Of a stretch of 38,141 nt of DNA, positions 21,001-38,141 are shown in pieces. Under the pieces are notes generated by a model, which was given only the letters and a program-made list of their open reading frames with translations, did no database searches and was not told where the DNA came from. Every line of letters starts with the position of its first letter. Within the stretch, counting starts at the first letter, position 1. The DNA is from a virus (Duplodnaviria > Caudoviricetes). Both the position numbers and the translations under genes were made by a program. The stretch is taken from the IMG/VR virus record IMGVR_UViG_3300029145_000015, positions 1 to 38,141 of that record; one strand, 5' to 3'.

Positions 21001-21274
21001 TCAGTTCCTCCAGCACGGCAGCGTTAAATACCATGTGGCTGCTGTGAAGGAGGCCCGACTCCGGGTCCTTGAGTTCTCCATTCTTCATTGCCATGGCGTG
21101 GCGGCAAAGGCTATCAAGAACCTCGTTCATATCATAATTCATCCAGCCTTTGTCCTCAGCGGGACTGTATTTTTCCTCCCCGAACATAAGAACCGCCGCC
21201 AGCCCGGATAGCGCGTTAGGCATGAGGAAACACTTGCCTATCCTCGGTTTACCTTTATTTTTGCGATCGGACAT
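20936..21274 (-). CDS. DUF5664-like protein (dATP/dGTP diphosphohydrolase N-terminal domain family)
   Basis: GKPR..L.P.AL...A.VL.FG.EKY....W ... DSL.RH ... DPESGL.H..H...N pattern. AAGGAG RBS before ATG 21274. Confidence 0.8.
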   Translation of the reverse strand: MSDRKNKGKPRIGKCFLMPNALSGLAAVLMFGEEKYSPAEDKGWMNYDMNEVLDSLCRHAMAMKNGELKDPESGLLHSSHMVFNAAVLEELTTYYLSEGSADGSVPEGFSSN

Positions 21275-21671
21275 GGTACTCTCCTTTAAGTATTTCTTGA
21301 AACTCAGGCCAGTCAATATTACCGTCCCATGTATGGTCCGCCATGACTTCCCAGTCATTAACTTTATCGCTGTCTGGGATGGAAAAAGGAAAGTGTAACA
21401 TGTATAAATCCCCTTCCTCCCATTTGGTCAACACGAAGGCCCTTGCGGCCACCCGGCGGCGGCGACTGAACCACCCTCGCTGGGACGGGCGTAGGGTAAT
21501 CCTGTTGTTATGGACGACCTTCAGCTCAATATCCCACGAAATACCAGGGTACATCGCGAAATTGACGTCGGGCCGCCCGATAGAGGTACCGGATTCAATG
21601 CGGTCCACATCACCCATGGAACGGAACCCGGCCCTCAGCTCATTAGTCCAGAACTTCTTCTCCGGTTTCAT
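21255..21671 (-). CDS. PD-(D/E)xK nuclease (VRR-NUC / Holliday junction resolvase-like)
   Basis: PEKKF, RIES..SIGRPDV, WDIELKV and LRPSQ.GW motifs. Confidence 0.8.
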   Translation of the reverse strand: MKPEKKFWTNELRAGFRSMGDVDRIESGTSIGRPDVNFAMYPGISWDIELKVVHNNRITLRPSQRGWFSRRRRVAARAFVLTKWEEGDLYMLHFPFSIPDSDKVNDWEVMADHTWDGNIDWPEFQEILKGEYHVRSQK

Positions 21672-22168
21672 GGTAGCGCGTAATCTACAACGGCGATTCC
21701 GGCTACAACATCTTCAACCATACTGGCCTGATCAGCTGGGAGATCAGTAATCATATTGGTATATTGGTTGGTGACGTATTGAAACGCAAAAACCCCATAG
21801 TGCCCCGTTTTGTATTGTCGAATCCATAGCCACGTTTCAATAACATCGGCTATCTTGACAATTTTCTGCACGGAAATAGGCCCGTCCCAATTATAAGGCT
21901 CCTTATTGGGGGAGGGTATATCACCCGTCAGGACTTCATCTACGTCGTGGTTTAGGGCAGAATCCAACACCGCATGCATCCACTTATCATATTGTGCTCT
22001 TGGCCACTCCTCCTGTGATCGGTTAACAAATGATTGGGCCAGCGATTGAGCAATCACTATAACCCCGTACGTGTGACCGGCGACCGTCTGACTCCGGGTA
22101 GTCGGGACAGTATGCCAGCGCTCAACCTCGTCGAGGCGGAGCCTATCTTTTAACGTAAGGTTTGACAT
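21668..22168 (-). CDS. datZ: HD-domain dATP triphosphohydrolase (DatZ-like)
   Basis: RWHT....QTVAGH, ALNHDVDEVLTGDIPSP.K and KIADVIE motifs; directly downstream of purZ. Start probably ATG 22168 (the ORF extends to 22192). Confidence 0.85.
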   Translation of the reverse strand: MSNLTLKDRLRLDEVERWHTVPTTRSQTVAGHTYGVIVIAQSLAQSFVNRSQEEWPRAQYDKWMHAVLDSALNHDVDEVLTGDIPSPNKEPYNWDGPISVQKIVKIADVIETWLWIRQYKTGHYGVFAFQYVTNQYTNMITDLPADQASMVEDVVAGIAVVDYALP

Positions 22169-23168
22169 GTTGGTACTCCGGGCCATAACCACAAAGACGA
22201 ATGCCGGTGCCGTAGGATTCGGCCACCCGGTCGATTTGATCTGTCAACACCCCGAGATGTCCCGGCTCAAGATAGTTACAGAAATTAAGGAACAGATGGT
22301 CCGGGCGACAATGCCAGAGGGATTCTTGCAACTGGCTGATTGAGAATGTGAACACCCGGCGCTCCCGTTGGGTCACGGTGGTGAGTTCGGGCGTTTGACC
22401 AAGCTCGTCCCATGTGAGTTCGGATTGGTCCGCGTAATTATCGCCACTATAACCGCCGGGGGTGTTACCGACCCGGATGGGGTAAGTACGAAGGGTACCC
22501 CACGTGTTTACCCTCACCTGCGGGAGGCCCATGTCGCTGAGCATCCGGTAGGGGGTGCACTCGCGGGAGGTACAGTAGGGCCAGAAGCGTTGGTTAATAC
22601 CGAGCGAAAAGCCCTGGCTCCCCTCTGCCAGCACCCTATCGCATTCATCGAGGTGCATCATCCATTCGTCGTGGTTCAGTACCACGATGTTCATGTCCGG
22701 GTGGTAGATTTCGTCGACCATGTGTTCCGCTGTGCACAAGGCATCCGGTTGCCGAGTCATTTTCTCGACCAGAGCTGCCATGGAACCCTGCATGGTGGAC
22801 GCAATCGAGTTCAACTCGTTCTGCTCCATTTCCCGGTGATAATCCCGAAGGATCATTGCGTTGGGGTGGATGAGAACAGGGGCCGTAATCCCCTCCCGGT
22901 ACATCTGCTCTATCTCCGCATGCAGGCGGGCGGGGTCGAATACAGCCCCCGGCCCGATAAAAATATAGCGAAGGTTCGGTGAAACAATGCCGTTAGGGAG
23001 AACCTTGTGAATCCACTTCCGGCCCTGCCGGTCGATGTATGTGTGGCCAGCGTTCGGCATATTGCAGGTGATAACACCGTCATGCCCGCTAGTCTCCGCA
23101 AGGTACCCCACCAGCAAACCCTTCCCGGTACTCCCGTACTGGAGGTCTACTACCAAATCAATTTCCAT
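22143..23168 (-). CDS. purZ: PurZ, N6-succino-2-amino-2'-deoxyadenylate synthase (adenylosuccinate synthetase paralogue)
   Basis: DLQYGSTGKG with Ser replacing the catalytic Asp of PurA GDEGKG; PNAGHT, EGSQGFSL, PYCTSR, ELTTVT..RRV; LNFCNY replacing the PurA TKLD GTP motif. Confidence 0.95.
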   Translation of the reverse strand: MEIDLVVDLQYGSTGKGLLVGYLAETSGHDGVITCNMPNAGHTYIDRQGRKWIHKVLPNGIVSPNLRYIFIGPGAVFDPARLHAEIEQMYREGITAPVLIHPNAMILRDYHREMEQNELNSIASTMQGSMAALVEKMTRQPDALCTAEHMVDEIYHPDMNIVVLNHDEWMMHLDECDRVLAEGSQGFSLGINQRFWPYCTSRECTPYRMLSDMGLPQVRVNTWGTLRTYPIRVGNTPGGYSGDNYADQSELTWDELGQTPELTTVTQRERRVFTFSISQLQESLWHCRPDHLFLNFCNYLEPGHLGVLTDQIDRVAESYGTGIRLCGYGPEYQHVKPYVKR

Positions 23169-25458
23169 CGTTATCTTCCTCTGTCGGTTGTTGGAATGAT
23201 AGGCCTAGTTCTCTTTTCGCTATGTCGAGACAAGTCTCATATGCCGGGACTAGGTAACCCGGAATTCTTTTACCGTTTGGTTTCTTGAACTTCATGAGCG
23301 ACATACCACATTGGAGCATACGCTTGAAGAATACATTATCTGCGATCGTCTTGCGGCGGTTATCCTTACACCAATCTTTGTATGATCGTAGGGCATCAGC
23401 TTTGGTTATCTTCTCGGGCCAGTCGGATTCATCATCGGCTCGGAAGGCTGGTATATCCAACACGCCCGTGGCCAATCGTTCTGACCACCATCCGGTGACT
23501 GAATCCATGCTACTATATTGCGCTCGCTGATCGAATAGAGCTGCGGTTTCGGGAGCCTTGCCGAGGTGACTCGTGATCTCTCGTTCAAGCAGCTCATGAA
23601 GCATACCGGCCAACCCTCCTTCCTGCTCCATCTGGCGATGAATCGCACTGAAGTATTCCCGATCGTTCGCCCGGTCGGGTTGAAGTTCAAGTACCAGCCA
23701 GCGTCGGGACTGGGGGCCAGCTGGTATAAACCAACTTTCATTTGAAGCAACGAGTAAATGAGCGCAGTTGTGGTACTGTATAGCATCGACACCCTTTCTC
23801 TCGGCAGTAATGTACCGTTCCGTAACAAGCGCCTTAAGTTTGCCCGCGACTTTACGATTTCCTCCGTATGTAACTTCGTCCGCAAAAGCCACGATGCAGT
23901 CAGCCATGTGGCCGTTGAATCTGCCGACCAGATGTTCTTCGTCAGTGATGTGCTTGTAGCTCGTTCCAAAGAGTTCACCTAGAAAGTGGGCGAATGTACC
24001 CTTGCCACACCCCTCAATTCCGTTCATTACGATAGCGGTACCGGGTGGATTAGCCGGGTCCTGCACTAAATTAGCCATCCAATCCATTACCCACTCGAAT
24101 AAGCCACTGTCCCCACCACATAGTATATCACGCACGTGGCCCCGGTACAAGTCCCAATTTCCGGGCTGCGGCTCAACGCTGAATCCGCCCCACATGTTGT
24201 AGTAGCCCTGATAGCGCTTCGGTTTGTGGGGGAACATTCCTAGCCCGCACGGGTAGGTGCGCCGGTTTTCATGGGCCAGCCAAATATCAGCTAATGACTT
24301 CTTGGTCACGGCCCCTTGGTCGTTGACTTCGAGCATCTGCTTATTCTCAAGGAGGGCGCGGAACCCTTGACGCTTGAAGATGCGGTACTTAGGCTGGATG
24401 CGCCTCATGACCTCCGGGACGTCGATTTCCTCCAAGATCATGACGTCTGACCCCATTGGTACTATAGCAAAGGTCTCATTCAGGCGCTCGATTATTTGCT
24501 CGTACTCCTCGCTGTTCTGGGGGTTCTCGGCATTGAGTAAATCCCACCCCCGGTTCTTGGCGTAGAAGATGAGGGTACCCATCCTGATGTTACCGTGCTG
24601 GTTGAAGCCGTTCCACCGCTGGGAACACTCACCCGCCTTATAACGTTCCCCCTTCTGAGACCATTGATCCCAAATCTCCATACCCTCTGGGTCCGGGTGC
24701 TGGGAGTGAATAGCCTGCCCGACGTTGAGCCATTCATCGTAGCTGAGTTCATCCGGGTCGATAATTTCGAGCATCCCCCGGACCTCTTCGATGCTGTAGA
24801 AATTCTCAATATCGTCGTCTTCTACAAACTCGTTACCTCGATTGCCACCCCTAGCGCCCTGTTTCCAGGGTTTGCCCATCTTGCTAATTAACCAATCTGG
24901 GGTGTCGGGGGTTTGGCCCCCTTGCTCCCATGTGTAGGCTCTTCCTTCGACGACTGAGGGCCAGACAACGATGTGACCTCCACACTTGTCAGGCATACCT
25001 CCACGGGTATCAACCCCGTCCGCGATCTTAGATGTGGAAGAGGTCGCATGTTCCCGCCAGTTGAAAAGTAGGTGCCTGCCACCGGAGGGCGTAAACTGAA
25101 CCGGACCCCGGAATTCGAAGTCTTCTGGTACGGTATTATCGAATGACTCGATGCCATTGGTTTCCCCATGCTTATCCAGATCGATTACGAAGATGCCATC
25201 CCGGCGACCGGTACCCAGCCCCACATTCCAACCTTCGTACTTGCCGTCAGGGCCGAACCATTTGGCGACTACCTTCGGGTTCTTGGACGCGTGAGTATAA
25301 TTAAAGTTGTACCTCTTCCCCGGCAAGGCTTTCCCGTTAGGTCTTATCGGGACGACGTATAGCCCTTGATTTGCGTACATGACCGCCGCCGCCAGAACTT
25401 TGGCATCGAGGTCCTTTATCTGCTCTATGTCTTTGATTTCACTGATATCAATTTCCAT
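23158..25458 (-). CDS. primase-polymerase / PriCT-2 / SF3 helicase fusion
   Basis: Prim-Pol motifs VIDLD, TPSGGRH, GVDTRG; PriCT-2 YDEWLNVGQAIH..WDQWS; Walker A GIEGCGKG, Walker B FADE and motif C ASN. Confidence 0.9.
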   Translation of the reverse strand: MEIDISEIKDIEQIKDLDAKVLAAAVMYANQGLYVVPIRPNGKALPGKRYNFNYTHASKNPKVVAKWFGPDGKYEGWNVGLGTGRRDGIFVIDLDKHGETNGIESFDNTVPEDFEFRGPVQFTPSGGRHLLFNWREHATSSTSKIADGVDTRGGMPDKCGGHIVVWPSVVEGRAYTWEQGGQTPDTPDWLISKMGKPWKQGARGGNRGNEFVEDDDIENFYSIEEVRGMLEIIDPDELSYDEWLNVGQAIHSQHPDPEGMEIWDQWSQKGERYKAGECSQRWNGFNQHGNIRMGTLIFYAKNRGWDLLNAENPQNSEEYEQIIERLNETFAIVPMGSDVMILEEIDVPEVMRRIQPKYRIFKRQGFRALLENKQMLEVNDQGAVTKKSLADIWLAHENRRTYPCGLGMFPHKPKRYQGYYNMWGGFSVEPQPGNWDLYRGHVRDILCGGDSGLFEWVMDWMANLVQDPANPPGTAIVMNGIEGCGKGTFAHFLGELFGTSYKHITDEEHLVGRFNGHMADCIVAFADEVTYGGNRKVAGKLKALVTERYITAERKGVDAIQYHNCAHLLVASNESWFIPAGPQSRRWLVLELQPDRANDREYFSAIHRQMEQEGGLAGMLHELLEREITSHLGKAPETAALFDQRAQYSSMDSVTGWWSERLATGVLDIPAFRADDESDWPEKITKADALRSYKDWCKDNRRKTIADNVFFKRMLQCGMSLMKFKKPNGKRIPGYLVPAYETCLDIAKRELGLSFQQPTEEDNDGN

Positions 25459-25461
25459 GAC

Positions 25462-27345
25462 TTACCCCTGTAGTGCGGCCCACCAATTTTCCCCACACCC
25501 GTTACGGTCGAGTATTAGTGGTACCCGGAGGATAGGACGCTCTATTTGACCCTTGACGTCCTTCCAACATTCTTCAACCTTATCCTCGTCTACGCTCATA
25601 CTATAACTATCATGTGTGTTGATGAGTAGACGCCCTCTATCACCCAAAGCCTCACTAACGAGAGACCAGTTTTCCTTATTTATATCGGCGGCGGTGGCTT
25701 GGATGAGTACCCCCGACGCCTTATAAGTCTTATGTTTCCACAGGGACGCAAACCGGAGTCTTCGTCCGTACATCGTGAATACGTACCCCCGGCGCTTGGC
25801 GGCTTTCTCTGCCTTCTGTGCCAATTCCTTTACGCCCCTTACCTTCCGGTGATAACTATTGATCACCGCCATAGCCTCTTTACCGGCCTTGAAATAGTTG
25901 ACTCTCTTGCCCGATTCGTCGGTGAAGTGGGCCGGGGTACAGGGCAGTCCCAATAAATTCGCTATAGCGCCGTTCCCGGAATTAAAAATCATTGACAGGT
26001 TCAGCTGTTTCGCATTAGCACCGCCCTTGGCATGCGGGTTTCGGGGGACTCCCATCAACTCCGCTACCCAACCATGGAAGTCGGTAAATGGGTCCTCCGC
26101 GTAGGCTTGTACCAGAGCGTCGTTGAATGCCCCCACTAGATGAGCAAAACATCGAACCTCGAAACTATTCAAGTCCCCGTCCAACCATTTCTGGCCCTCG
26201 TCCGGGAGGAAACAAGGCTTGACTATCGCAGCCACAGTCTTATTCCGATTAGGAATCTGCCCCAGTGCGGGGTCCACATAGGAGAACCGCCCTGTCTTGG
26301 TCCCGCCGTCGTCTCCGGCAACCTGATTGATTGTGGGGTATACCCGCCCATCGATGGAATGCCCGATCACATGCTTGGCAAGAAAGGTGTCCGCCGTCCG
26401 GATGAGGGAACGAATGTCGATAATGGATTGGGCCACTGGGTCTACGTTAACTATCGACTGTAGCACGTCATTGTCGATTGATGGATTGCCCTTTGGGGTC
26501 TGTTTGGTCGGATAGCCCCCGCAAATAATATATCCATCCTCTTCGTTACCTTGGGGGTTGAAGTATTCGCGAATCTGGGGGGCGGAATTGGGGTTGAATG
26601 GGCGACCGATTAAGCTATTAAGTTTAGATTTCTCTTGGTCGATCTTAATATGGAGTTCGTTCATGGCCCTTTCAGCCACGTCAAGGTCTACCCGGACACC
26701 CTTGATCTCTTGCTCGTAAACATGGGGGATGGTCCTGCGCTCGAATTCGCAAATCTCCCGTATGTCTTGGGCCTTAATCTCCCCCTCTTGCCAATGCCAC
26801 AACTCGAATGTACCCTCGGCGTCGATCTCGGCATAAGGTTCTACCATGCCAGCCGGGGCATGCTGCAGGTTGGGCATCTGGACGTTCCGGGTAGCCATCC
26901 CCCCAAACATATCAGCAAGTTCCTGGTAAATATCCCCGTATTTCTCCTTACCCAAGTACCGCTGCATGAGGGAGTCCAAACTATAGGACATTAGATGCTC
27001 ATCGATCAGACAAGCCCTAATTGCCACATCGTCCACCTTGGTAAGGTCAAAGTGGACTCCCTCATTAGCGAGCATCTTCAGGTCGAACGTGGCATTGAAG
27101 AATACCCACAGCGTTCCCGGATTACGGGAAATAGAATCCCTGAGCCATGATAGCGCCTCTGGTTGCTTGCGTATGTCGTAATACGCCGAAAACCCCTGCC
27201 AAGCAATCGAGAATCCGAACACCCGGTGGAGTTTAAAGTGCAGCCCGGTCGTCTCCGTGTCAAGGGCGACCACTGGCGGGAGGCTAGAAGGGAATGTCGT
27301 CGTCAAAATTATCTGGCCCTGATTTTTGTGAATTACCCGGCGCAT
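25462..27345 (-). CDS. dpoZ: family A DNA polymerase with 3'-5' exonuclease, DpoZ-type
   Basis: Exo motifs DTETTG, FNATFD, YAEID; TGRFS; motif A DLNSFEVR; motif B KQLNLSMIF; ASGVLIQATAAD; motif C HDS. Linked to purZ. Confidence 0.88.
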   Translation of the reverse strand: MRRVIHKNQGQIILTTTFPSSLPPVVALDTETTGLHFKLHRVFGFSIAWQGFSAYYDIRKQPEALSWLRDSISRNPGTLWVFFNATFDLKMLANEGVHFDLTKVDDVAIRACLIDEHLMSYSLDSLMQRYLGKEKYGDIYQELADMFGGMATRNVQMPNLQHAPAGMVEPYAEIDAEGTFELWHWQEGEIKAQDIREICEFERRTIPHVYEQEIKGVRVDLDVAERAMNELHIKIDQEKSKLNSLIGRPFNPNSAPQIREYFNPQGNEEDGYIICGGYPTKQTPKGNPSIDNDVLQSIVNVDPVAQSIIDIRSLIRTADTFLAKHVIGHSIDGRVYPTINQVAGDDGGTKTGRFSYVDPALGQIPNRNKTVAAIVKPCFLPDEGQKWLDGDLNSFEVRCFAHLVGAFNDALVQAYAEDPFTDFHGWVAELMGVPRNPHAKGGANAKQLNLSMIFNSGNGAIANLLGLPCTPAHFTDESGKRVNYFKAGKEAMAVINSYHRKVRGVKELAQKAEKAAKRRGYVFTMYGRRLRFASLWKHKTYKASGVLIQATAADINKENWSLVSEALGDRGRLLINTHDSYSMSVDEDKVEECWKDVKGQIERPILRVPLILDRNGCGENWWAALQG

Positions 27346-27559
27346 CTTTTGCAGTAAATGCGAGGGACATAAATTTCTGCCCAGCGATTTTACTCTTCTC
27401 TCCGGCAGTTTTTACCCACCCGGAAAGAAAGAACCCGCTGACGGCCCCACAATGAGGACACGCCACTTCTGCACTCCCGGTACGGTCGGGGGAGGATGAA
27501 CTCCTCTTATCCTTGTTCACATACAAGGTACCCGAATTGGTGTTATCGTAATTAGGCAT
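27284..27559 (-). CDS. small SSB-like protein with acidic DDDIPF tail
   Basis: YDNTNSG.L..N.DK....PD.TG...LSGW.K pattern and C-terminal FDDDIPF. CAGGAG RBS before ATG 27559. Confidence 0.65.
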   Translation of the reverse strand: MPNYDNTNSGTLYVNKDKRSSSSPDRTGSAEVACPHCGAVSGFFLSGWVKTAGEKSKIAGQKFMSLAFTAKDAPGNSQKSGPDNFDDDIPF

Positions 27560-27572
27560 AGTATCTCCTGAT

Positions 27573-27608
27573 AAAAAGCCGCCCGGCACCGGAGCACCGG
27601 GAGGCTTT
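27573..27608 (-). terminator. intrinsic terminator/attenuator
   Basis: On the - strand, AAAGCC-t-CCCGG...CCGGG-c-GGCTTTTT hairpin with a U-tract, downstream of 27623-28378. Confidence 0.6.
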
Positions 27609-27622
27609 CAGGTTGAGCTGAC

Positions 27623-28378: not shown

Positions 28379-28433
28379 TTCTAGTTCCTCAGTTCTAGTT
28401 TCTCAGTTCAGGGACTTGACCGGCCCCTCGCGG

Positions 28434-28877: not shown

Positions 28878-28920
28878 AGTTTGCTCCGTTTAAGGTAGGA
28901 CCCCCCACCTAGATATCCTT

Positions 28921-28949: not shown

Positions 28950-28965
28950 GACATAATTTAAGAAG

Positions 28966-29271: not shown

Positions 29272-29281
29272 ATCGTTCTCC

Positions 29282-29453: not shown

Positions 29454-30911
29454 CTACCCGTGGCTACCAGAATTCTCATGTGCTTGTATCCCCGCGATGT
29501 TTTCTTCAACAAATTTAGCTAAACCGCCCTTTTCCTTGACGGCACGCATAATCATTTTATCGTAGTGGTGCCGGGCTTCGATATCAATATAGGTTACAGA
29601 CTCGGTTTGTCCCTTCCTGTGCGCCCGGTCCTCACTCTGCACTCTGTCTTCGTATGAAAAGCTGTTCGAAAAGTAAATCACCAAAGTGGCATTCGTCCAC
29701 GTCTGTCCCATTCCACCCATCGACGGATTGGAGATCATGAACCTCGCGTTCCCATCCGTGAAACGTAGCACTTCGTTCCTCCTCTCCTCGTCCGGGATTG
29801 CGCCGTAAAACGCGGCCACCGAGTCTGGGCCATGAGTCGCTGAAATCGAGTTCAGTATACTCTCGATCTCGGGTCGGAACCTCGCCCATATGATAACATT
29901 TGTTGTACTCGGTAGGTCTTCCAACACCTCCATCAAGGCGTTGAGTTTCGGATTCGGCCCCTCTATTGGCTCGACTGAGAACGTCCCGTCGTCTTCTACG
30001 AAAGGAAAGTTCCCGCCGATTATCTGTTGGAATCTCGTCAGACGTTCCAATATCGTCTGGGTTATTAACCATTTATCCCCCTGCTCCGCCTCCATTGTAT
30101 CCTTCAGCTGTTTGATAGCTTTCAACTGATTAGGCGACGGTTCTACTACGATTTTCTCATATACCTTGCTCGGGAGGTCCAGTACATCCTCTTTTTTAAC
30201 TATATCTACATACGGGGAGACTCTAGCAAGGAGTTGGTCTAAATTCTGGTAATCAACAATCTCTTTATCGTCGTGACCACCCATAATACAATAGGCAGCC
30301 TTAAATAACCGGAAGTTTTGCTTCCCAATAATCTTCGGGTTTAGGAACCGAAATTGACCGAATAAATCTTCGACACCCTGAGTGATCGGGGTACCAGTCA
30401 TTAGTATCCGGTATAGACACTTGGCCGCGACTTTGGTTGCCCTTTTGGTGCGGAGGGAGGCGTAATTTTTAAGGCGGGACGATTCATCCGCCGCGATCAT
30501 ACATTTGTTATCTTTGGCGAATTGGAGCAGGTATTCGTGAGTATCGCCCTGTGATAGCGCTTCTATTCCCACTATAAGGACTTTCATATGATTCGGATAC
30601 GAGGTTTTCCCGAATTCACGCATCCCATCTTTGAAAGCTTGGCCCGCCATGTGGGTGTAAACCATACATTCGACCGGGGACCATTTGTCGATCTCGTTTT
30701 CCCAGACTAACTTAATTGGGGTGGGGCAAATTACAATGAGGGCCTCGATTTGATCCTTCATATATCGGGCGGCGGCGAGATTTATCACCGTGAAGGTCTT
30801 GCCTGTGCCCATTTCCCAGAATAAGGCGAATTCCGAACCTTTCTTCCACGCACGTTTCAGGCCATTAACCTGATGAACCATAGGCTCGGCTTTGTAAGGG
30901 TGACCACTCAT
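29454..30911 (-). CDS. SNF2-like superfamily 2 helicase
   Basis: EMGTGKT (motif I), ADES (II), MTGTP (III) and QSEDRAHRKGQ (VI). Confidence 0.92.
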   Translation of the reverse strand: MSGHPYKAEPMVHQVNGLKRAWKKGSEFALFWEMGTGKTFTVINLAAARYMKDQIEALIVICPTPIKLVWENEIDKWSPVECMVYTHMAGQAFKDGMREFGKTSYPNHMKVLIVGIEALSQGDTHEYLLQFAKDNKCMIAADESSRLKNYASLRTKRATKVAAKCLYRILMTGTPITQGVEDLFGQFRFLNPKIIGKQNFRLFKAAYCIMGGHDDKEIVDYQNLDQLLARVSPYVDIVKKEDVLDLPSKVYEKIVVEPSPNQLKAIKQLKDTMEAEQGDKWLITQTILERLTRFQQIIGGNFPFVEDDGTFSVEPIEGPNPKLNALMEVLEDLPSTTNVIIWARFRPEIESILNSISATHGPDSVAAFYGAIPDEERRNEVLRFTDGNARFMISNPSMGGMGQTWTNATLVIYFSNSFSYEDRVQSEDRAHRKGQTESVTYIDIEARHHYDKMIMRAVKEKGGLAKFVEENIAGIQAHENSGSHG

Positions 30912-31102: not shown

Positions 31103-31107
31103 GGGGG

Positions 31108-31275
31108 CTATTTCGCCCCCGAATTAGATTCCATTTTCTCAGCGATCTTCTCTTCAATTTCTTGAAGGTATTTCACGTGGTTGACCGGGACTTCAACCAT
31201 CCGGACTTCACGAAGATGTTCTTTGAGGACTTTCATCTGGTGGTAGGTAAAATCTACCTTGAATTGCCGTGCCAT
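31108..31275 (-). CDS. 55-aa hypothetical protein (not in the ORF track)
   Basis: Hand-translated MARQFKVDFTYHQMKVLKEHLREVRMVEVPVNHVKYLQEIEEKIAEKMESNSGAK; fills the gap in the - strand operon. Confidence 0.55.
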   Translation of the reverse strand: MARQFKVDFTYHQMKVLKEHLREVRMVEVPVNHVKYLQEIEEKIAEKMESNSGAK

Positions 31276-31389
31276 ATTAGTAACCTGTCGGGTTATTGAA
31301 AAATACCCCCCTTCGCGGCGTAGCCGGGCTGCAACCCGGTGGGGGGCGGTCTACTTAACGGCCAGAGCGTAACCGTTGCCTAGGTATCG

Positions 31390-31842
31390 TTACTTCTTGG
31401 CTTTCGCCCTCTCCTTAGCCTTCGCCTTTGCGGCGGCTTCCTTCGCCTTTGCGGCCTTTTCCTGCTCGCGTTCCTTCTCGCGACCGGCGACGGCCTTGCG
31501 AACAGCAGAGGACAACTTGGTGATGTAAGTATCACCGGAGCCTTCCTTCTCCTTGTTCATCTTACCAGCAACACCACGCATCCGGTTGCCCAGATTCATG
31601 CGCTGCATGCCGTCATTCAGGTGGCCGTATTTGGCCTTCAGGTCCTTAACGGTGGTATCACCGATAGCCTCGGCGGCGAGGTCGTAAACCTCATCCAGGG
31701 TTGCGCCCTGCAGGGCGGTTGCCACAGCGTCGCCATTGTGTTGCGATTTGGCACCGCTGGCGCTGCGAGCGGTTTCGTACTTGCTGGTATCAGGGCGGAC
31801 CGTGGTCTTGCCACTGTCGGGTGCTTCTTTTGCTTTGGGCAT
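31390..31842 (-). CDS. Lys/Ala-rich putative DNA-binding protein
   Basis: KYGHLNDGMQRMNLGNRMRG core and a histone-like KAKEAAAKAKAK tail; has its own promoter and GAGGA RBS. Confidence 0.65.
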   Translation of the reverse strand: MPKAKEAPDSGKTTVRPDTSKYETARSASGAKSQHNGDAVATALQGATLDEVYDLAAEAIGDTTVKDLKAKYGHLNDGMQRMNLGNRMRGVAGKMNKEKEGSGDTYITKLSSAVRKAVAGREKEREQEKAAKAKEAAAKAKAKERAKAKK

Positions 31843-31895
31843 CGTTCTATCCTCAGTTGTGATGCTTGGGGGATGGTCTCTCGACCTGCCACGTT

Positions 31896-31924
31896 ATTCT
31901 AACACAGTACACTGTACCGGTCAA
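31896..31924 (-). promoter_or_regulatory. sigma70-like promoter with an inverted repeat in the spacer
   Basis: On the - strand, TTGACC, 17 nt, TAGAAT. The spacer contains ACAGT-gt-ACTGT. Confidence 0.75.
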
Positions 31925-31940
31925 GAATGGGTTTTAGCTG

Positions 31941-32207
31941 CTACGCACACCGTTCGGAAATATACTCGGCGGCGGCGCGATCAGTCATAACAAACTCGTT
32001 CTGGGAAACAGTCCGGAGGTCGGACAAAGCGCCCCACTCGTACCGCCTCCATTCACCTTCGATGAACACAGTCACGTGGCTCTTGCCGTGAATCACTATG
32101 GGGCATCCTTCGATATCGGGGAATACGGACAGGACCATAAAGACAGCGAGTGTCTGATACGGTTTCCCTGTGAAATCGGAGGGGAGGGGTTTTCTAAGGT
32201 CGCTCAT
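31941..32207 (-). CDS. hypothetical protein
   Basis: GGAG-CGCTATC-ATG start at 32207; 88 aa. Confidence 0.65.
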   Translation of the reverse strand: MSDLRKPLPSDFTGKPYQTLAVFMVLSVFPDIEGCPIVIHGKSHVTVFIEGEWRRYEWGALSDLRTVSQNEFVMTDRAAAEYISERCA

Positions 32208-32728
32208 GATAGCGCTCCATCCATCCATGCGGCATAACTGTCCGCGTTTACGTTAAGTTGGTTTAGCTCCACCGTACAGGTGTTGGCGAATTCGGCCCAC
32301 TCCGGGTCGTACGGAATCTGAAGGTGACGGTTAATGAACTCAAGGTGAATATCTACCTCAGTAAACGGTACCCGGTACCCCTGTACAGTAGAGAGTTGCG
32401 CCTCGAAGAATCCGAACATCTCCCACGCGATACCCAGGTCTATTTCCTGCCCGATTTTGTCGGCCCACCGGGCGAAGCTTTCATAGGCGTACCGCTTCGG
32501 ACGCTCGATAATGACTGTGGGTTTGTCGGGCCAAACTTGCTGAAAGTCCGTGATCGGGAGGCCGGTGTCGCAAAACACCAGAGGCCGGGACCTGAACAGT
32601 TCGTGGAACTCTTCTGCGTCATTGACCTTGTTCATTGGTTCGTGAATGGCCTCGATTCCCAGCCCCCGGAGGTAGAAGGTGAACCACGCCGATCGCGTCC
32701 GGGGTAACCCTGTGATAAAACCGATCAT
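32204..32728 (-). CDS. sulfotransferase-like P-loop protein
   Basis: N-terminal FITGLPRTRSAW resembles the PAPS 5'-phosphosulfate loop (GxPRSGT/S), followed by HEP and VIIERP. Confidence 0.55.
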   Translation of the reverse strand: MIGFITGLPRTRSAWFTFYLRGLGIEAIHEPMNKVNDAEEFHELFRSRPLVFCDTGLPITDFQQVWPDKPTVIIERPKRYAYESFARWADKIGQEIDLGIAWEMFGFFEAQLSTVQGYRVPFTEVDIHLEFINRHLQIPYDPEWAEFANTCTVELNQLNVNADSYAAWMDGALS

Positions 32729-33090
32729 TATACCGGTATCTCTATTTCTAGGAATTCGTCCGACAGACGTCTTGTCCTTATGAAGTCTTTGATTTCAGGG
32801 CGAACATCGCCGTAGTAAACAGCGCCCGCAAAATGTCTACCCACTACCTTAAGTTGAAGGGCACTGGGGTCCACCAAAGAAGTGTAAACGCACGTCCCTC
32901 CTGTTTTAGTAGTGATGAACCCCCGGTTCCGGTCTATGGAAGCCAGCATACCTTCCGCGCTGAAAGTATCCGCGTGATGGGTCATAGTTTCAAGTAACAT
33001 CTGCCGGAAGGGGAACACGGCTATAATGTTCTGACCGTTGATGTATATTTGGCGCAGGGCCTCGAATTTTCGTTCGTAATCGTCCATCAT
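32728..33090 (-). CDS. hypothetical protein
   Basis: 120-aa ORF coupled to both neighbours. Confidence 0.65.
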   Translation of the reverse strand: MMDDYERKFEALRQIYINGQNIIAVFPFRQMLLETMTHHADTFSAEGMLASIDRNRGFITTKTGGTCVYTSLVDPSALQLKVVGRHFAGAVYYGDVRPEIKDFIRTRRLSDEFLEIEIPV

Positions 33091-33677
33091 ACCACCAATT
33101 TAAGCAGTGTGTTTTGCTCGGGCTTGTCTTCTTCCTGCCGAAGATGTTTCCGCCTATCCCAAATCTCTTCCTGCTTCGGGCGCTGCTTGTCTAGGATAGC
33201 GCGTAGGTGATCCACAACCCCCATGTCAGCTTGGCGCTCAATCAACACGGTCTCGGTTTCCGCTATGCTGAACGGGAACAGGTCCTCCACTTTCTGGGGA
33301 TTGAACTCCCGGAAGGTCGGGGTCATGTCCAACACTGTAAATGGTTCAAAGATTTCCTGCCGGAGAACCTCGATTGACGATACGACATTGTTGATAATGA
33401 TCGGGGGACCCTGCGGTATGTGTCGCACCCTATCCAGAGGCTCGTATGTGTACTCTGGCACAAACGCATATAGCTTTAGAAATTTGTTCCTGATTGCTAT
33501 CCTGACTTCCCATGTCTCAGGGGTGTAATCAACAGCAAATTCCCACCCGTTCCTCTGCAGAACATAGGTGTTCGACTCCCACCCCGCAAAGTGCACAGGG
33601 ACAGGAGCCGAGTAAAGGACCTTTAACTTATCCAATGTCGTAGGTGCCGTCAGTGATGCGAGCGTTGAGGTCCTCAA
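33087..33677 (-). CDS. hypothetical protein (start uncertain)
   Basis: 196-aa ORF in the - strand operon. Confidence 0.7.
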   Translation of the reverse strand: MRTSTLASLTAPTTLDKLKVLYSAPVPVHFAGWESNTYVLQRNGWEFAVDYTPETWEVRIAIRNKFLKLYAFVPEYTYEPLDRVRHIPQGPPIIINNVVSSIEVLRQEIFEPFTVLDMTPTFREFNPQKVEDLFPFSIAETETVLIERQADMGVVDHLRAILDKQRPKQEEIWDRRKHLRQEEDKPEQNTLLKLVV

Positions 33678-33828
33678 TCTCGCGGTTGATGTTTGCCAGG
33701 ATTTTCTCGGCGTCGGCCCTCTGGTGCAATTTCTCCTTCAGAGCCCTTACAGCTTCCTTGTTGCGCTCGGCCTCAACCTCAGCCTCGGCAATCTCCATCG
33801 GGGTCTTACTCTTTACTTCTTCAACCAT
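33628..33828 (-). CDS. small coiled-coil hypothetical protein
   Basis: GAGG RBS before ATG 33828 (MVEEVKSK...); 66 aa. Confidence 0.65.
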   Translation of the reverse strand: MVEEVKSKTPMEIAEAEVEAERNKEAVRALKEKLHQRADAEKILANINREIEDLNARITDGTYDIG

Positions 33829-34007
33829 TACTTTATCCTCACTATGCGGACCCGCCACGGGAACCATGGCTTCTTACTCCGCAGTTTCGTTTTGCACTGG
33901 TCAACCTCTTCGCGGAATTTCTCCGCTGCAACCTCGGCCTGTGCTTGGGCCATCGGGTCCATGGTGCCTGTCACGGTTCCCATGCAGTATGGGCATTTCT
34001 TGCTCAT
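33828..34007 (-). CDS. 59-aa hypothetical protein with CPYC (not in the ORF track)
   Basis: AGGAG-CGCTATC-ATG start; MSKKCPYCMGTVTGTMDPMAQAQAEVAAEKFREEVDQCKTKLRSKKPWFPWRVRIVRIK; the stop overlaps the next start (TAATG). Confidence 0.65.
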   Translation of the reverse strand: MSKKCPYCMGTVTGTMDPMAQAQAEVAAEKFREEVDQCKTKLRSKKPWFPWRVRIVRIK

Positions 34008-34138
34008 GATAGCGCTCCTAAAATTAGTGCCCCTCTGTCGCCCACGGCGGGGCTACCGTGTTTGCCTCCCCAGTCAACCACGGACGAGAATTAACCGGGC
34101 GGGCTTGCATATTATTAGACCACATATGCCAGATGGTT

Positions 34139-34429
34139 TCACCCTGCGAATCGGTCTATGGCGAAACCGACCGCAGTTAGGGTGACTCCGATACTATAAA
34201 GGACGTGGAATGGGAACAAATGTGCCCAAGAATAGGGGCGCAGTCTGTGGTCCTCGGTCAGAATATTCTGGCCTGTATGGGTCTTATGTTCCTTATCAGA
34301 GAAGGGGTTCCACGACGCGCGCTTGTGGCGGTCAATATGAACCTTCTTGTTGGCGTCCCAAATAGCGCGTTCCTCGCGCAGGGTCTCCAAGTTCCCATCC
34401 AACTTCTTCAGCATCTTTTTAAGCATCAC
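34139..34429 (-). CDS. hypothetical protein with a C-terminal membrane helix
   Basis: AGGAG RBS; hydrophobic VLYSIGVTLTAVGFAI. Confidence 0.6.
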   Translation of the reverse strand: MMLKKMLKKLDGNLETLREERAIWDANKKVHIDRHKRASWNPFSDKEHKTHTGQNILTEDHRLRPYSWAHLFPFHVLYSIGVTLTAVGFAIDRFAG

Positions 34430-34689
34430 GCGTCTCCTGTCAACCGGTCGTCACGCATCCGGTCGTATTCATAATCGGCCCGACAAGCAGCCTCCTCGAA
34501 AGCCCATTCATTATAGTCTGACTCAATAGTGCATTCCTCATCTTCGAAAACTTCGCCGTCGCAACAGTCTGAGCTAAGGCCCATCCTGCTATCGAAGCCT
34601 TTAGCACCCCAAGCCTCGTAAGAGCCAATACCGAAGTCCTCGGCATGGACGCCACATTCATTCTTGCATTCACCACAGTAATAGGTCAT
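34426..34689 (-). CDS. acidic Cys-rich (probably Zn-binding) small protein
   Basis: YYCGECKNEC and SDCC motifs; RBS and promoter upstream. Confidence 0.65.
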   Translation of the reverse strand: MTYYCGECKNECGVHAEDFGIGSYEAWGAKGFDSRMGLSSDCCDGEVFEDEECTIESDYNEWAFEEAACRADYEYDRMRDDRLTGDA

Positions 34690-34716
34690 GTCCGCTCTCC
34701 CATAGATGACCCCTGC

Positions 34717-34746
34717 AGTATACCATGCGGGGGGGGCCGGAGTCTA
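34717..34746 (-). promoter_or_regulatory. sigma70-like promoter
   Basis: On the - strand, TAGACT, 18 nt ending TGG, TATACT. Confidence 0.55.
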
Positions 34747-34750
34747 GCAC

Positions 34751-35599
34751 TTATTTGCCGATCGAACCCCAAGCTTCCTTGATCTTGGTGTAGGCCTGCT
34801 CCAATATCCGGATGGAATCATCTTCACCTTCCAACTTTTCCTTCAGGTGTGCGTGGACCGCCAAGAAGGTATCCAGATTGCACGGTCGCTCGATGAACTC
34901 GGGGCCAAAGCCGTAGATGATAGCGCTCTGGCTATATTCGTCCATCCCGTCGAACTCACCTTCCAGAACGGCCTCAATTCGTTGCCGCGGGAATAACATA
35001 AGCACCCGATCGATTTTATCATCCATGGACTCCATTTTCTTGGAAGTCTTCTTGTCGGTACCGCCGTGCTCGGAAGGTTGGGGGGCGGGTTTGTCCTTGG
35101 CCTTCGCCTCTTTAACTTCGGCGGTTGTTACTTCCTCACCTTTCTCCGCCTTTTCCTTTACTTCCTTCACGACCTCGGGGGATGCGTTCAGCAGTTCGCG
35201 GGCGGTGGACCAGCCAAGCTTATCAACCAGCGCCGGGGCATCCTTAAATTCTTTGGCCATAGCCATGTATTGGCTCACGGTCCGGGGTGCCATGTCGGGC
35301 AGGACAGCTTTCCGCCATTTGCCGAATTCGTTGTCGCCGGGGAAAAGATCGCGGGCGCGTTGTAGTAGCTTGCCGAGTTTGAGCCGGGCGCGGGCAACTG
35401 TGATGATAGTGTCCTCGACCGTCTTGTCAATGTCGGCCCGGATTGTGTCCAGTTTTTCGAGTGATAGCGCGGAAACTCCCTTCGCCCAGTCGGGACTGGC
35501 CTCGGCCGGGGGTTTGGCGTCGCCCTCGAATCCCAACATTTCGTCCAGTTCGTCGGATTTCTCTTCGCTCATTGTTGCGCGGGGTGATGACTTAGCCAT
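34751..35599 (-). CDS. DUF3102-like phage protein
   Basis: LGKLL..AR......EFGKW......M..RT...YM..A pattern of DUF3102; 282 aa. Confidence 0.65.
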   Translation of the reverse strand: MAKSSPRATMSEEKSDELDEMLGFEGDAKPPAEASPDWAKGVSALSLEKLDTIRADIDKTVEDTIITVARARLKLGKLLQRARDLFPGDNEFGKWRKAVLPDMAPRTVSQYMAMAKEFKDAPALVDKLGWSTARELLNASPEVVKEVKEKAEKGEEVTTAEVKEAKAKDKPAPQPSEHGGTDKKTSKKMESMDDKIDRVLMLFPRQRIEAVLEGEFDGMDEYSQSAIIYGFGPEFIERPCNLDTFLAVHAHLKEKLEGEDDSIRILEQAYTKIKEAWGSIGK

Positions 35600-35795
35600 G
35601 TTTTAGCTCTCCGTTGCTGCGGTACTTGCTTGATGAAGGGAGGTACGCACGTTTCAACGCGATCTCCCGTGGAGCGCCTAAATTCGGACGCCATGTTTTG
35701 CTAGTAAAAATGGTAGGGTACGCGTAAATCCGCCTTGGCTCTGTGGCCACTGCATTGGGTGGAACGGTGTCGGGGCTTTTGGGGCCGTATTTCAT
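35592..35795 (-). CDS. hypothetical early protein
   Basis: 67-aa ORF with GGAG RBS, coupled to its neighbours. Confidence 0.6.
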   Translation of the reverse strand: MKYGPKSPDTVPPNAVATEPRRIYAYPTIFTSKTWRPNLGAPREIALKRAYLPSSSKYRSNGELKHG

Positions 35796-36097
35796 GCTGG
35801 TACTCCAATTAGTTTCAATCCGCCTTTCGGGATGTCGGTCCGAAGGAGGTAGTAAACGGGTCGGTTAAGATATTTCGGGTGGGTTGGTGCCCAGATGTAA
35901 GCAGCATGGGGCGAGTTGTGGAGTTCGTAGCGGTACGGGTTTATGTCCCCGCCTTCAATCTCCAGCCCGCCGTTGGAATCCTTGATAGCGCCCTCTATTG
36001 CCGCCTCAAGGTTCGGGTAATCGTTGGGTAAAATACCGGTCTCCCCATCATTCTGGGAAGACCGATAGATGATGAATTTTTGAACGGGCTGGTTCAC
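35792..36097 (-). CDS. hypothetical early protein
   Basis: 101-aa ORF with a GTG start overlapping the upstream stop. Confidence 0.6.
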   Translation of the reverse strand: MNQPVQKFIIYRSSQNDGETGILPNDYPNLEAAIEGAIKDSNGGLEIEGGDINPYRYELHNSPHAAYIWAPTHPKYLNRPVYYLLRTDIPKGGLKLIGVPA

Positions 36098-36330
36098 TCG
36101 CCAAAAACCTCATCCATGAGGGGTTGAATATCCCTCTCCGGGAGGCGGTGGGCCGCATCAATCTTGCGGAACACCGTGTAGCAATTAAGTGCATCGTCGT
36201 CGGTGTCAAACTCCGCCACCTTCTGCTCTCGCAGGACGCGGTGCATGATTTCGAGTTCGTCGGGGGTGAAGGCCAGCAGAACCGCTGCGAGCTGATCCTT
36301 CATGTTCAAACCTGTAAGTCGCCTTGCCAT
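36094..36330 (-). CDS. hypothetical early protein
   Basis: 78-aa ORF with GGAG RBS. Confidence 0.65.
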   Translation of the reverse strand: MARRLTGLNMKDQLAAVLLAFTPDELEIMHRVLREQKVAEFDTDDDALNCYTVFRKIDAAHRLPERDIQPLMDEVFGE

Positions 36331-36504
36331 AATTGTAGCTCCGTGTGTGATAGCGCAAAAGTTAAAAAATGGTGACGGGTATTGGCCGGGATTGCTGGAT
36401 TGCTCGTATCGTACCTGTTCAATCCGCAGGGTATCCTCCTCACCGTCACACCTTCATCATACCATACCGGGGCCGGGGTGTCCAGTCCCAGTTTTGGCGG
36501 TGAT

Positions 36505-36843
36505 CTATTGGATTTTGGTCCCCGTGATTACGAATTCCAGTTGCGGGGTGCCTGTTTCGTCGTCGCAAGTCAGGGTTATCCGACGGTCGACGGCCAATCC
36601 AAGTTTGGGTTTCGCCTTGAGCCGGGTGTAATCCGCCGCTTTGGTACTCTGGTCGAATTTCAATACTTTGGGTTCCTTGCGGGCCTCGGCTATTGCCGAG
36701 AACTCCATTCGATAACCCTCCGCCGCTGATAGCGCGCGTTGCAGACTGCGGTATGCGGGGTCAAATGTCCGCATCATGTCGCGTTTACCATTGTGGATTT
36801 CCGAGACGGTGACAAACCAAATTAATCCTCGTTGCTCTTCCAT
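36505..36843 (-). CDS. hypothetical early protein
   Basis: 112-aa ORF with CAGGAG RBS and an upstream promoter. Confidence 0.7.
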   Translation of the reverse strand: MEEQRGLIWFVTVSEIHNGKRDMMRTFDPAYRSLQRALSAAEGYRMEFSAIAEARKEPKVLKFDQSTKAADYTRLKAKPKLGLAVDRRITLTCDDETGTPQLEFVITGTKIQ

Positions 36844-36888
36844 TTGTTGCTCCTGTTGTACTGGGGGCCATCCCCAGCTTGCAATTAC

Positions 36889-36918
36889 ATTATATCACGG
36901 GACCGGGCAAGGCGTCAA
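36889..36918 (-). promoter_or_regulatory. sigma70-like early promoter
   Basis: On the - strand, TTGACG, 18 nt ending TGA, TATAAT. Confidence 0.75.
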
Positions 36919-36981
36919 GTACAGTTTCATTCACGGAACGAATATTTGCCATTCGCGGGAATTATGCCTGATAGCGCATAT

Positions 36982-37293
36982 TTATGTATGCAGGACTATG
37001 TTTACCTCGTAGCTGATGATGTGGAACTCAGGCCATTTGCATTTCAGTTCGAACTCAGGTATGTGTTTCCTACTTTCTTTGTTCATAATAAAAATGCGGT
37101 GGCCGGGTTTCTCCCAAGATACGCACTCTCCGTATTTAGGCGGGTGTTCCATTCCCTCGGACAGCTCTTTAATGATTTCCTTTACCCGTTTGTATGCCAT
37201 ACCCCAATGATTATAAGCTTGGGGGTGGGGGATGAGTTTATCCCCCTCCGCGTCCGGGTAAAGCTCGGTGACAAAATGGACCTGGGTTTTCAT
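36982..37293 (-). CDS. hypothetical early protein (start uncertain)
   Basis: ATG 37293 (MKTQVHF...) avoids overlap with the upstream gene; no clear RBS. Confidence 0.55.
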   Translation of the reverse strand: MKTQVHFVTELYPDAEGDKLIPHPQAYNHWGMAYKRVKEIIKELSEGMEHPPKYGECVSWEKPGHRIFIMNKESRKHIPEFELKCKWPEFHIISYEVNIVLHT

Positions 37294-37309
37294 TATGATA
37301 GCGCGGGTT

Positions 37310-37726
37310 TCAGAACTCGTTGGGGAAATTTGTATCTTGCCAAGCGTTTGCCGCTTCTTGGATGCCTGCCTTAATAATCTGGTCAAACTCCCAGCCTCGT
37401 GCCTGTTCTTCGCGGTCAAGGTGCAGGGCCTGCTCTTCCGGGGTCAAGGAATTAAAATACCTCTTCTCTCCCTCGGCAATCAAGCACTCCGGCCACCATT
37501 CGAACTCGTCGAAATCTTGGGCCGTGATAGGTTTATCCCCGTTCCAGAAAATATGCTCCAAAAAGACCGCCCGGTCAGTGGACATTCGGGTTCCATCCGA
37601 CTCGTGCTGCTCCGCAATGGCGGCGTACTGGTGGGTTTCCATCAACCCCCGCCACTCTCTATCGCATTGGCGAATCTCATGGTTGATGAACATGGTGAAG
37701 ACCTTAGCCTGTGTGTGTGGTTTCAT
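37310..37726 (-). CDS. hypothetical early protein
   Basis: 138-aa acidic ORF with CAGGAG RBS and an upstream promoter. Confidence 0.7.
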   Translation of the reverse strand: MKPHTQAKVFTMFINHEIRQCDREWRGLMETHQYAAIAEQHESDGTRMSTDRAVFLEHIFWNGDKPITAQDFDEFEWWPECLIAEGEKRYFNSLTPEEQALHLDREEQARGWEFDQIIKAGIQEAANAWQDTNFPNEF

Positions 37727-37754
37727 GATGCATGCTCCTGTAGCCGATAGAAAA

Positions 37755-37783
37755 AGTATAGCACAGGACCCGCCCTAAGGCAA
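37755..37783 (-). promoter_or_regulatory. sigma70-like early promoter
   Basis: On the - strand, TTGCCT, 17 nt ending TGC, TATACT. Confidence 0.7.
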
Positions 37784-37799
37784 GCCCTGATAGCGCAAA

Positions 37800-38066
37800 C
37801 TAGCAAATGGCATTTGCCTCCATCCACCGGCGGCTTTCTTCCCACCGAAATGCTTCAACCTCGTATTCCAAGTCGTCCGGCCTCATATCGAAACGGGTTG
37901 CCACCTGATCGATGATGCGCTCGTATTGATTCTTCTGTATCCGGGCGTGGGCCGGGCCAGAAAACTCGCCGCCGTCGAAATGAGAGTCGGCCTCTTCGGC
38001 CAATTCAAGGGACGGGGCGATCTGGGACCAAAGGCGAAGGACTGCCTTGATAGCTGCCTTGTTCAT
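37800..38066 (-). CDS. hypothetical early protein
   Basis: 88-aa ORF with CAGGAG RBS. Confidence 0.7.
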   Translation of the reverse strand: MNKAAIKAVLRLWSQIAPSLELAEEADSHFDGGEFSGPAHARIQKNQYERIIDQVATRFDMRPDDLEYEVEAFRWEESRRWMEANAIC

Positions 38067-38141
38067 GTTGTGGCTCCTGATAGCGCGGCTTGCTGGTTTA
38101 AGGGTTTGAACTCTCCCGGCGCCGCTGTGCCGGAAAAAGAT

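Follow-up and report, generated by a model that had tools for sequence, protein, structure and literature searches.

A strand-polarised 9-mer graded from the early-gene end of a purZ/dpoZ phage, with a small late HNH protein as its candidate nickase

Genome organization of the window

IMG/VR record IMGVR_UViG_3300029145_000015 (38,141 nucleotides (nt); the window, meaning the whole stretch analyzed) represents a 38-kb podovirus-like phage in which PHROGs and Pfam scans identify purZ/dpoZ genes, and it is considered here for a 9-mer, TGATAGCGC, that recurs on a single strand, together with a small HNH-family protein encoded at the end of the late genes. The plus-strand arm, extending to position 21000, comprises terminase, portal, capsid, tail and internal virion genes. 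The convergent minus-strand arm encodes a dATP/dGTP diphosphohydrolase, an HD dATPase, PurZ, a primase-polymerase, a family A polymerase, an SF2 helicase and many small early open reading frames (ORFs). The nearest cultured relatives are VP2, phiVC8, K300 and ZP6, with 42–45% identity in the primase-polymerase. Window PurZ is 52% identical to that of phiVC8 and 50% to that of ZP6, and the HD dATPase and polymerase are 48–52% identical to their counterparts in the same two phages. PurZ conserves Ser13, the serine at the position of PurA Asp13 that is the PurZ signature; a Z-genome (2-aminoadenine) is therefore likely for this phage.

A polarized 9-mer graded from the early-gene end

Exact counting found 15 copies of TGATAGCGC on the plus strand and none on the minus strand, at the positions listed by an earlier reading of the DNA made without database searches (the sequence-only reading). 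The two variants noted in that reading, at 21206 and 33194, were also recovered; both read GGATAGCGC, so that the 8-mer GATAGCGC occurs 17 times on the plus strand and not at all on the minus strand (Table 1). On the sense strand of the early genes the 9-mer is spelled GCGCTATCA. Dinucleotide shuffles yielded a mean of 0.15 copies and a maximum of one, and 15 copies were reached in none of 100; a synonymous-codon shuffle that preserves the proteins gave a mean of 0.31 and at most two copies (n = 300), compared with 15 in the window and none on its opposite strand. Gaps between sites widen leftward, as had been claimed (Spearman rho 0.93 between gap and distance from the right end, p 4e-7), and the positions are non-uniform across the early arm (Kolmogorov–Smirnov p 0.007). 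Measured from the early end, the 17 sites lie between 0.1% and 72% of the genome length.

Five of the 17 sites fall between called genes and 12 touch ORFs, with all three frames in use, and the sites at 32207 and 34007 each overlap an ATG start. In minus-strand genes, Ala-Leu-Ser is spelled GCG CTA TCA in five of seven peptides, against codon frequencies of 0.27 for GCG, 0.11 for CTA and 0.14 for TCA. Use of three frames, the intergenic sites and the codon-shuffle result agree with the earlier statement that coding does not account for the copies. A longer consensus or a hairpin around the 9-mer was not found in the flanks of the window sites, and because these flanks are not conserved, the element measures 8–9 bp. 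The sequence-only reading was right in this respect: the 9-mer is an oriented cis-acting signal under selection, its gradient starts from the early-gene end, and coding does not explain it.

Conservation of the word in relatives

Whether related purZ podoviruses possess an equivalent motif had been raised by the sequence-only reading, and the answer is divided. The 9-mer was not found in the cultured DpoZ relatives phiVC8, VP2, K300 and ZP6, and a scan of IMG/VR with a single primase sequence gave no matches. Polymerase-alignment scans collected 157 DpoZ loci, 74 of them at least 15 kb long and some of them duplicates; only three, belonging to two phages, carry the word (at least 3 copies), and all others have at most two copies. 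Two of the three, L007/L082, belong to G001, a complete genome with 59% polymerase identity, and the third, L083, to G002, with 53%. G001 has nine exact copies and G002 six plus one variant, all on the early sense strand and with none in reverse. In both phages the word is densest right after the boundary between terS and the early genes, and the gradient runs from that boundary in all three purZ phages. Within the shared helicase and polymerase genes, sites of G001 and G002 lie at different places than those of the window, and the pattern is therefore kept by site turnover and not as inherited fixed positions. In G002 (C1, about 7554–7582), a sigma-70 promoter close to consensus, TTGACG-17-TACAAT, holds the first GCGCTATCA within its 17-nt spacer.

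A small HNH protein accompanies the word

The product of 20722–21000 matches Pfam HNH with an E-value of 7e-5 (23.4 bits versus a cut-off of 21.4), and all 21 aligned homologs keep His63, Asn77 and Asn86, in agreement with the beta-beta-alpha metal motif of HNH nicking endonucleases, which has a His general base, a structural Asn and a His or Asn as metal ligand. Its structure model (predicted local distance difference test score, pLDDT, 81) shows two strands and a helix at residues 59–87. Identity is 70% to the G001 protein and 77% to that of G002, at or near the top among all proteins shared with these phages, and the HNH was not detected in ZP6, phiVC8 or K300. The HNH profile matches three of the 157 DpoZ loci, the same three that carry the word; G001 and G002 had been retrieved via DpoZ and not via HNH. 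Profile searches of the whole records of 11 motif-free relatives gave no match in ten and a weak one in the eleventh. When 54 window ORFs were compared, the HNH alone had homologs in 10 of 10 motif-bearing genomes and in 0 of 4 motif-free cultured relatives, a comparison that counts for less in that six of the ten motif-bearing genomes were picked by HNH and four were not. Phages tf and LUZ24, picked from the literature, also encode the family (E-values 5e-8 and 1e-6; hhalign probability 95.6, E-value 1e-8), as do UFV-P2 and NV1, the closest relatives of Rembedalsseter.

Some of these genes have escaped annotation. The 95-residue HNH ORF of tf (L275, 16129–16416, plus strand) is unannotated in RefSeq, where tf_29 is called over it in another frame; LUZ24 gp26 is its annotated homolog. 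In QDWS535 (L169), an unannotated homolog at 49321–49617 on the plus strand lies directly upstream of the gene for the terminase large subunit.

Polarized words in other HNH carriers

Were the word set by the HNH, each further carrier would be expected to have its own polarized and graded word. A blind word scan of 47 genomes, 31 with HNH and 16 without, recovered the published tf motif and returned words both polarized and graded (counts for the two strands in brackets) in QDWS535 (GGTC[GT]ATCA, 16/0), TM27A (GCGCACTCA, 9/0), Vibrio 1.293.O (AATACTATCA, 6/1), VR7901 (AATGCTATCA, 6/1), G019 (CTACTATCAC, 6/0) and Lyrsu03 (ACT[AG]TGACG, 13/0). WACTRTGMC in PhCF1.2, at 6/0, is graded too but fell short of the blind-scan threshold. 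Relative word positions in HNH carriers are similar to those in tf, and annotation of QDWS535 and 1.293.O places the word on the early sense strand there too. The words broadly track the HNH tree, with GCGC-type words in the window/TM27A branch and TACTRTG in the tf branch. Near-identical words in QDWS535, VR7901 and 1.293.O, all without a purZ homolog, mean that dependence of the signal on Z, as the sequence-only reading had suggested, is not required.

Several genomes need separate mention. Excluded from the counts were G022 (152 kb, HNH-positive), L005, L006, L013 and the first 121 bases of QDWS535, as well as T5, which was covered by the HNH-profile search only. The Ralstonia phage Raharianne, which matches the HNH profile (E-value 1e-6) via a 238-residue endonuclease VII-like protein and lacks a word, was counted as HNH-negative, as was G032 with its weak match (E-value 0.001–0.004). 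Strong words outside the family pattern occur in G006, G008, G012, G015, G020, G021 and G029, and the strong matches in HNH-negative G033 and G038 are clustered short-period repeats. Weaker polarity is seen in CW02 (ACTRTSA, 13/2), and in ICP2 (W01) WACTRTGMC stands at 5/5 and changes strand at about 27 kb, whereas the motif of tf keeps to one strand.

Proposed mechanism

We propose that the 9-mer is a virion-DNA nick site cut by the window's small late HNH, a reading to which we assign a probability of roughly two in three. The HNH, made late, would nick the early-gene sense strand of the DNA being packaged, either during or before packaging. The predicted cut is GCGCT/ATCA, because the word lines up with tf TACT/GTGAC, LUZ24 TACT-ATGAC and 1.293.O ATACT-ATCA; the T5 register, before GCGC, would be the alternative. 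If the HNH cuts the sense strand at the word, the virion would carry about 15–17 ligatable nicks concentrated at the early end, most of them within the first 11%, and the early template strand would be left whole. Such nicks could work as swivels or flexible joints, relieving twist and bending in the part of the genome under most constraint in packaging and in the first-entering DNA, which host RNA polymerase would transcribe while the remainder is still anchored; host ligase would then seal them. This mechanical purpose, granted the nicks, is the weakest step of the proposal and we hold it tentatively, at slightly under even odds; a role in evading host defence, again granted the nicks, is less likely. 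None of the four mechanisms named by the sequence-only reading fits best; its DNA-entry or packaging role persists as a plausible purpose of the predicted nicks.

It is possible, if a little short of probable, that phrog_4590-type HNHs of about 90 residues are in general the virion nickases of tf/LUZ24-like systems and form a mobile gene-plus-site module, each lineage that gains one writing its cognate 9-mer into a single strand, graded from the end that enters first. In this lineage that would have happened in 2-aminoadenine DNA, with P0121, the 92-residue HNH, as a nickase that reads Z:T pairs in a 9-bp site. A single small candidate cutter would turn nick function into a knockout question in cultured phages, and the motif variants would offer a natural series for how a 90-residue protein reads 9 bp. 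Under this proposal, Z-genome phages join those with predicted nicks, and the HNH emerges as a possible compact nickase for a long site, perhaps active on 2-aminoadenine DNA.

Several observations weigh against nicking by the HNH. The family pattern passes in 11 of 45 HNH carriers versus 0 of 17 non-carriers (Fisher p 0.026), but it was defined after the positives had been seen and the genomes are not independent, the window, G001 and G002 being one clade. In the other 34 of the 45 carriers, no family word reaches a corrected log10 p of -2.5 or better, so the HNH gene is not always paired with a detectable word; these word-free carriers include the complete cultured SU10, ICP2, VP41s3 and CW02, and many of the others are fragments. 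None of the 17 window sites matches TACTRTGMC, the common part being only a CT-R-T core. Fold matches of the HNH model are weak, the best being 4h9d, a nicking HNH (Z 5.2, root-mean-square deviation 3.6, 62 residues aligned), and a Foldseek match is likewise weak (E-value 0.12); the protein had no match among PDB sequences, and we know of no activity for this phrog_4590-type HNH family. Profile searches found no member of the family in phiKMV and T5, both of which are nicked. Contig breaks in the assemblies of runs X1 and X2 miss the sites, assembled contigs being of a kind whose breaks cannot show nicks or ends; a third run, X3, had no contig matching the window. Finally, the HNH could bind without cutting, or could assist terminase, a role raised by the QDWS535 homolog directly upstream of the terminase large-subunit gene.

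Alternative explanations

Virion nick sites of the tf kind could instead be cut by another protein, such as terminase or an unrecognized early protein, with the HNH as a passenger or accessory. The many HNH-bearing genomes without the word fit this explanation, as does the requirement of T5 for two genes, sciA and sciB (PMC3517423), and the dATP/dGTP diphosphohydrolase shares part of the HNH distribution, with homologs in G001, G002, QDWS535, tf and LUZ24. Against it, the HNH is the sole window ORF common to all 10 motif-bearing genomes, terminase homologs exist in motif-free relatives, and the catalytic His and Asn residues are invariant in the HNH. We regard a different cutter as unlikely.

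Much the same standing is given to an asymmetric binding site that is never cut, either stoperator-like or serving late shut-off of early transcription, and bound by an HNH-like or a DUF3102-like protein such as that encoded at 34751–35599. This regulatory explanation stays alive because some sites lie at promoters or start codons: three are near sigma-70-like promoters, two overlap start codons, the first G002 site sits inside a promoter spacer, and all early-arm sites are oriented with transcription. Gene-start enrichment is also reported for a proven nick motif (PMC11780129), 12 of the 17 sites touch ORFs with one lying antisense in a tail gene, and DUF3102-like homologs occur in motif-free phiVC8, VP2 and K300. 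The stoperator-like repressor site considered by the sequence-only reading is disfavored by the finding of no repressor or integrase family among 51 ORFs scanned against PHROGs and Pfam, a set in which many small early ORFs are unannotated.

Less probable still is a packaging or ejection signal read, with no nicking, by terminase or an ejected virion protein during translocation. The gradient from the terS/early-gene boundary in three purZ phages would suit such a signal, and contigs of two runs that stop at 38003 and 37829 give a weak hint of a nearby end. The window has no terminal repeat and is not a closed genome, because a contig of run X2 (record 9) extends 145 nt past position 1, without a match to the right end; a physical end near 38141 is inferred from gene layout, and G001 was assembled across the boundary equivalent to the window's dense end. 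The translocation signal is countered by terminase and portal homologs in relatives without the word, and by related words in phages with unrelated head and tail genes that have the HNH alone in common.

A host Chi site protecting the first-entering end from RecBCD/AddAB is very improbable. The orientation suits entry from the right, and GATAGCGC matches six of eight letters of GCTGGCGC, which the sequence-only reading gives as the Pseudomonas syringae Chi; the window plus strand holds one GCTGGCGC and one GCTGGTGG. Across 121 bacterial genomes, drawn from the class of a Gammaproteobacteria metagenome-assembled genome (MAG) that may not be the host's class, the word reaches at most about 32 copies/Mb versus 7.6 expected at uniform composition and is mostly near expectation, unlike a Chi. 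A bacterial-genome scan returned a single phage contig without the word, in a Gammaproteobacteria MAG, and no host was found. Moreover, the word tracks a phage gene across hosts, with variants in Klebsiella and Vibrio phages, whose hosts have Chi sites of the GCTGGTGG type, and the equivalent word in tf is a proven nick site. Finally, a priming site for the primase-polymerase is scarcely credible: the phage encodes such an enzyme and priming sites are strand-specific, but phiVC8, VP2, K300 and ZP6 have the same enzyme without the word, related words occur in phages without a primase-polymerase homolog, and half of the genome has one site only.

Other features of the window and its relatives

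The dATP/dGTP diphosphohydrolase gene (PF18909; 20936–21358, minus strand) overlaps the HNH gene tail to tail. Besides the five homologs named above, its distribution includes absences from phiVC8, VP2, K300 and ZP6, the last being annotated with MazG in its place. The DUF3102-like early protein, of 282 residues and encoded on the minus strand, contains two of the sites. Two identical 17-nt hairpins, GGGGGCTTCGGCCCCCC, at 5807–5823 and 6063–6079, follow the capsid gene and the next small ORF and are probable terminators.

Different repeated elements were seen in the relatives. A perfect 16-bp palindrome, GTGTCGACGTCGACAC, absent from the window, has eight copies each in phiVC8 (L002; 687, 16448, 21324, 24137, 29217, 33052, 34594 and 35815) and VP2 (L004; 1095 to 36258), mostly at gene boundaries, and some copies are labelled terminators or inverted repeats in the phiVC8 record. 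K300 (L003) has TTTGGGTT 12 times on the plus and six times on the minus strand versus 0.8 expected, spread along the genome. A 13-mer, CCGACGA[GA]CGGTA, with four to five copies on one strand of the early region, occurs in L124 (312–4073; G040, which has no HNH) and L051 (69–2853), and is a repeated element of the polymerase relatives distinct from the 9-mer.

Table 1. Sites of the 9-mer, spelled on the early-gene sense strand, and associated genes of the window.
Feature	Positions	Strand
GCGCTATCA site directly upstream of the ribosome-binding site of the first early ORF; predicted nick GCGCT/ATCA	38078..38086	-
Intergenic GCGCTATCA site, followed after 5 nt by a weak sigma-70-like -35	37788..37796	-
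GCGCTATCA site where ORF 37310-37726 meets the next start	37296..37304	-
Intergenic GCGCTATCA site; best sigma-70-like promoter (36918-36889) lies ~50 nt downstream	36969..36977	-
GCGCTATCA site within ORF 36505-36843, Ala-Leu-Ser	36727..36735	-
GCGCTATCA site, intergenic	36348..36356	-
GCGCTATCA site within ORF 35792-36097, Gly-Ala-Ile-Lys frame	35983..35991	-
GCGCTATCA site within DUF3102-like ORF 34751-35599, Ala-Leu-Ser	35462..35470	-
GCGCTATCA site within DUF3102-like ORF 34751-35599, Ser-Ala-Ile-Ile frame	34918..34926	-
GCGCTATCA site between GGAG and an ATG start, overlapping its A	34007..34015	-
Variant GCGCTATCC within ORF 33087-33677	33194..33202	-
GCGCTATCA site overlapping a stop plus the next ATG start	32207..32215	-
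GCGCTATCA site within the SF2 helicase gene, Ala-Leu-Ser	30552..30560	-
GCGCTATCA site within the family A polymerase (DpoZ-like) gene	27148..27156	-
GCGCTATCA site within the primase-polymerase gene, Arg-Tyr-Gln frame	24209..24217	-
Variant GCGCTATCC within the dATP/dGTP diphosphohydrolase gene	21206..21214	-
Isolated distal GCGCTATCA site lying antisense in a tail gene, at 72% of the genome length counted from the early end	10666..10674	-
Likely Z-genome module: dATP/dGTP diphosphohydrolase, HD-type DatZ-like (21668-22192), PurZ (22143-23168), primase-polymerase, DpoZ-like polymerase	20936..27345	-
Candidate nickase: basic 92-residue protein of the HNH family (phrog_4590), encoded by the gene that closes the late operon	20722..21000	+

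Comparison with known systems

Chi sites are host-defined and over-represented in the host, and the stoperators of mycobacteriophage L5 are 13-mers bound by the immunity repressor of a temperate phage. Both resemble the window word as short, asymmetric, oriented words repeated across a genome; they differ from it in that the sampled bacteria have no Chi-like excess and no repressor was found in the window.

Closer parallels are found among virion nicks. Site-specific nicks in phage virion DNA were first described some 50 years ago, and there is still no consensus on what they do (PMC11780129); PMC3517423 too gives their function as unknown. The sequence-only reading took the signal as a candidate for an undescribed kind, a view that is not supported, since tf/LUZ24-like phages have virion nick sites of the same anatomy. 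In phage tf, 14 ligatable nicks lie at 5'-TACT/RTGMC-3', all on the top strand and 11 in the left half (Glukhov 2012, PMC3517423), at 4.5–80% from the early end (PMC3517423). In Rembedalsseter, 13 breaks detected by nanopore sequencing lie at WACTRTGAC (Dougherty 2025, PMC11780129), a motif enriched on one strand in 60 LUZ24-like relatives, often at gene starts (PMC11780129). The parts of PMC3517423 covered name no tf-type nickase, and the available text of PMC11780129 names no enzyme and does not contain the term 'HNH'. In the literature found, the tf-type nickase is unnamed and nicks in diaminopurine phages are unreported; the paper behind the 2026 SciA structures, which may cover them, was not among it.

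T5 is nicked at 5'-R/GCGCRGG-3', for which the late genes sciA and sciB are needed (PMC3517423). T5.153 (SciA; PDB 9qgv, 9qgx) is deposited as a 'Nicking endonuclease' and may be taken as a precedent for a small nuclease as the cutter, not detectably related to the window HNH. Like the window word, the T5 site begins GCGC, and the cutter is a small nuclease gene of the late region. However, the HNH profile has no match in T5, the window HNH model compares with SciA at Z 2.6 and 4% identity, and T5 sites depend on additional sequence context and are found on either strand; the T5 register, if applied, would place the cut before GCGC and not at GCGCT/ATCA. The nicks of phiKMV-like phages, at 5'-CGACxxxxxCCTA/CTCCGG-3' (as cited in PMC3517423 and 10.1101/619015), are likewise one-strand, motif-defined virion nicks, whereas the site is long and bipartite, has four copies on the non-coding strand, and comes without an HNH homolog.

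The likeness to tf and LUZ24 extends further. In each case a non-palindromic 9-mer occurs in 14–17 copies on one strand, the early-gene sense strand, and crowds toward the early end of a podovirus genome whose two arms are transcribed convergently; the sites lie inside and between genes in any frame, often at gene starts, with diverging flanks, and a homolog of the window's HNH is encoded. The window differs in its word, GCGCTATCA, although 1.293.O provides an intermediate, ATACTATCA, between this and the tf word, and in its steeper gradient, with 13 of 17 sites within 20% of the early end versus 6 of 14 in tf. It differs also in being a purZ/dpoZ phage akin to phiVC8 and ZP6, in replication and head genes that are unrelated, and in an HNH gene that ends the late operon, where that of tf and LUZ24 lies behind the polymerase exonuclease gene; the nicks of tf have been mapped, whereas those of the window are predicted from its sequence. 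By this comparison, the window word appears to work like those of the tf/LUZ24 family without being a member by consensus. Elements of this kind are already known; the word itself is new, as are its occurrence in a clade of purZ phages and the naming of a candidate nickase that tf and LUZ24 also encode.

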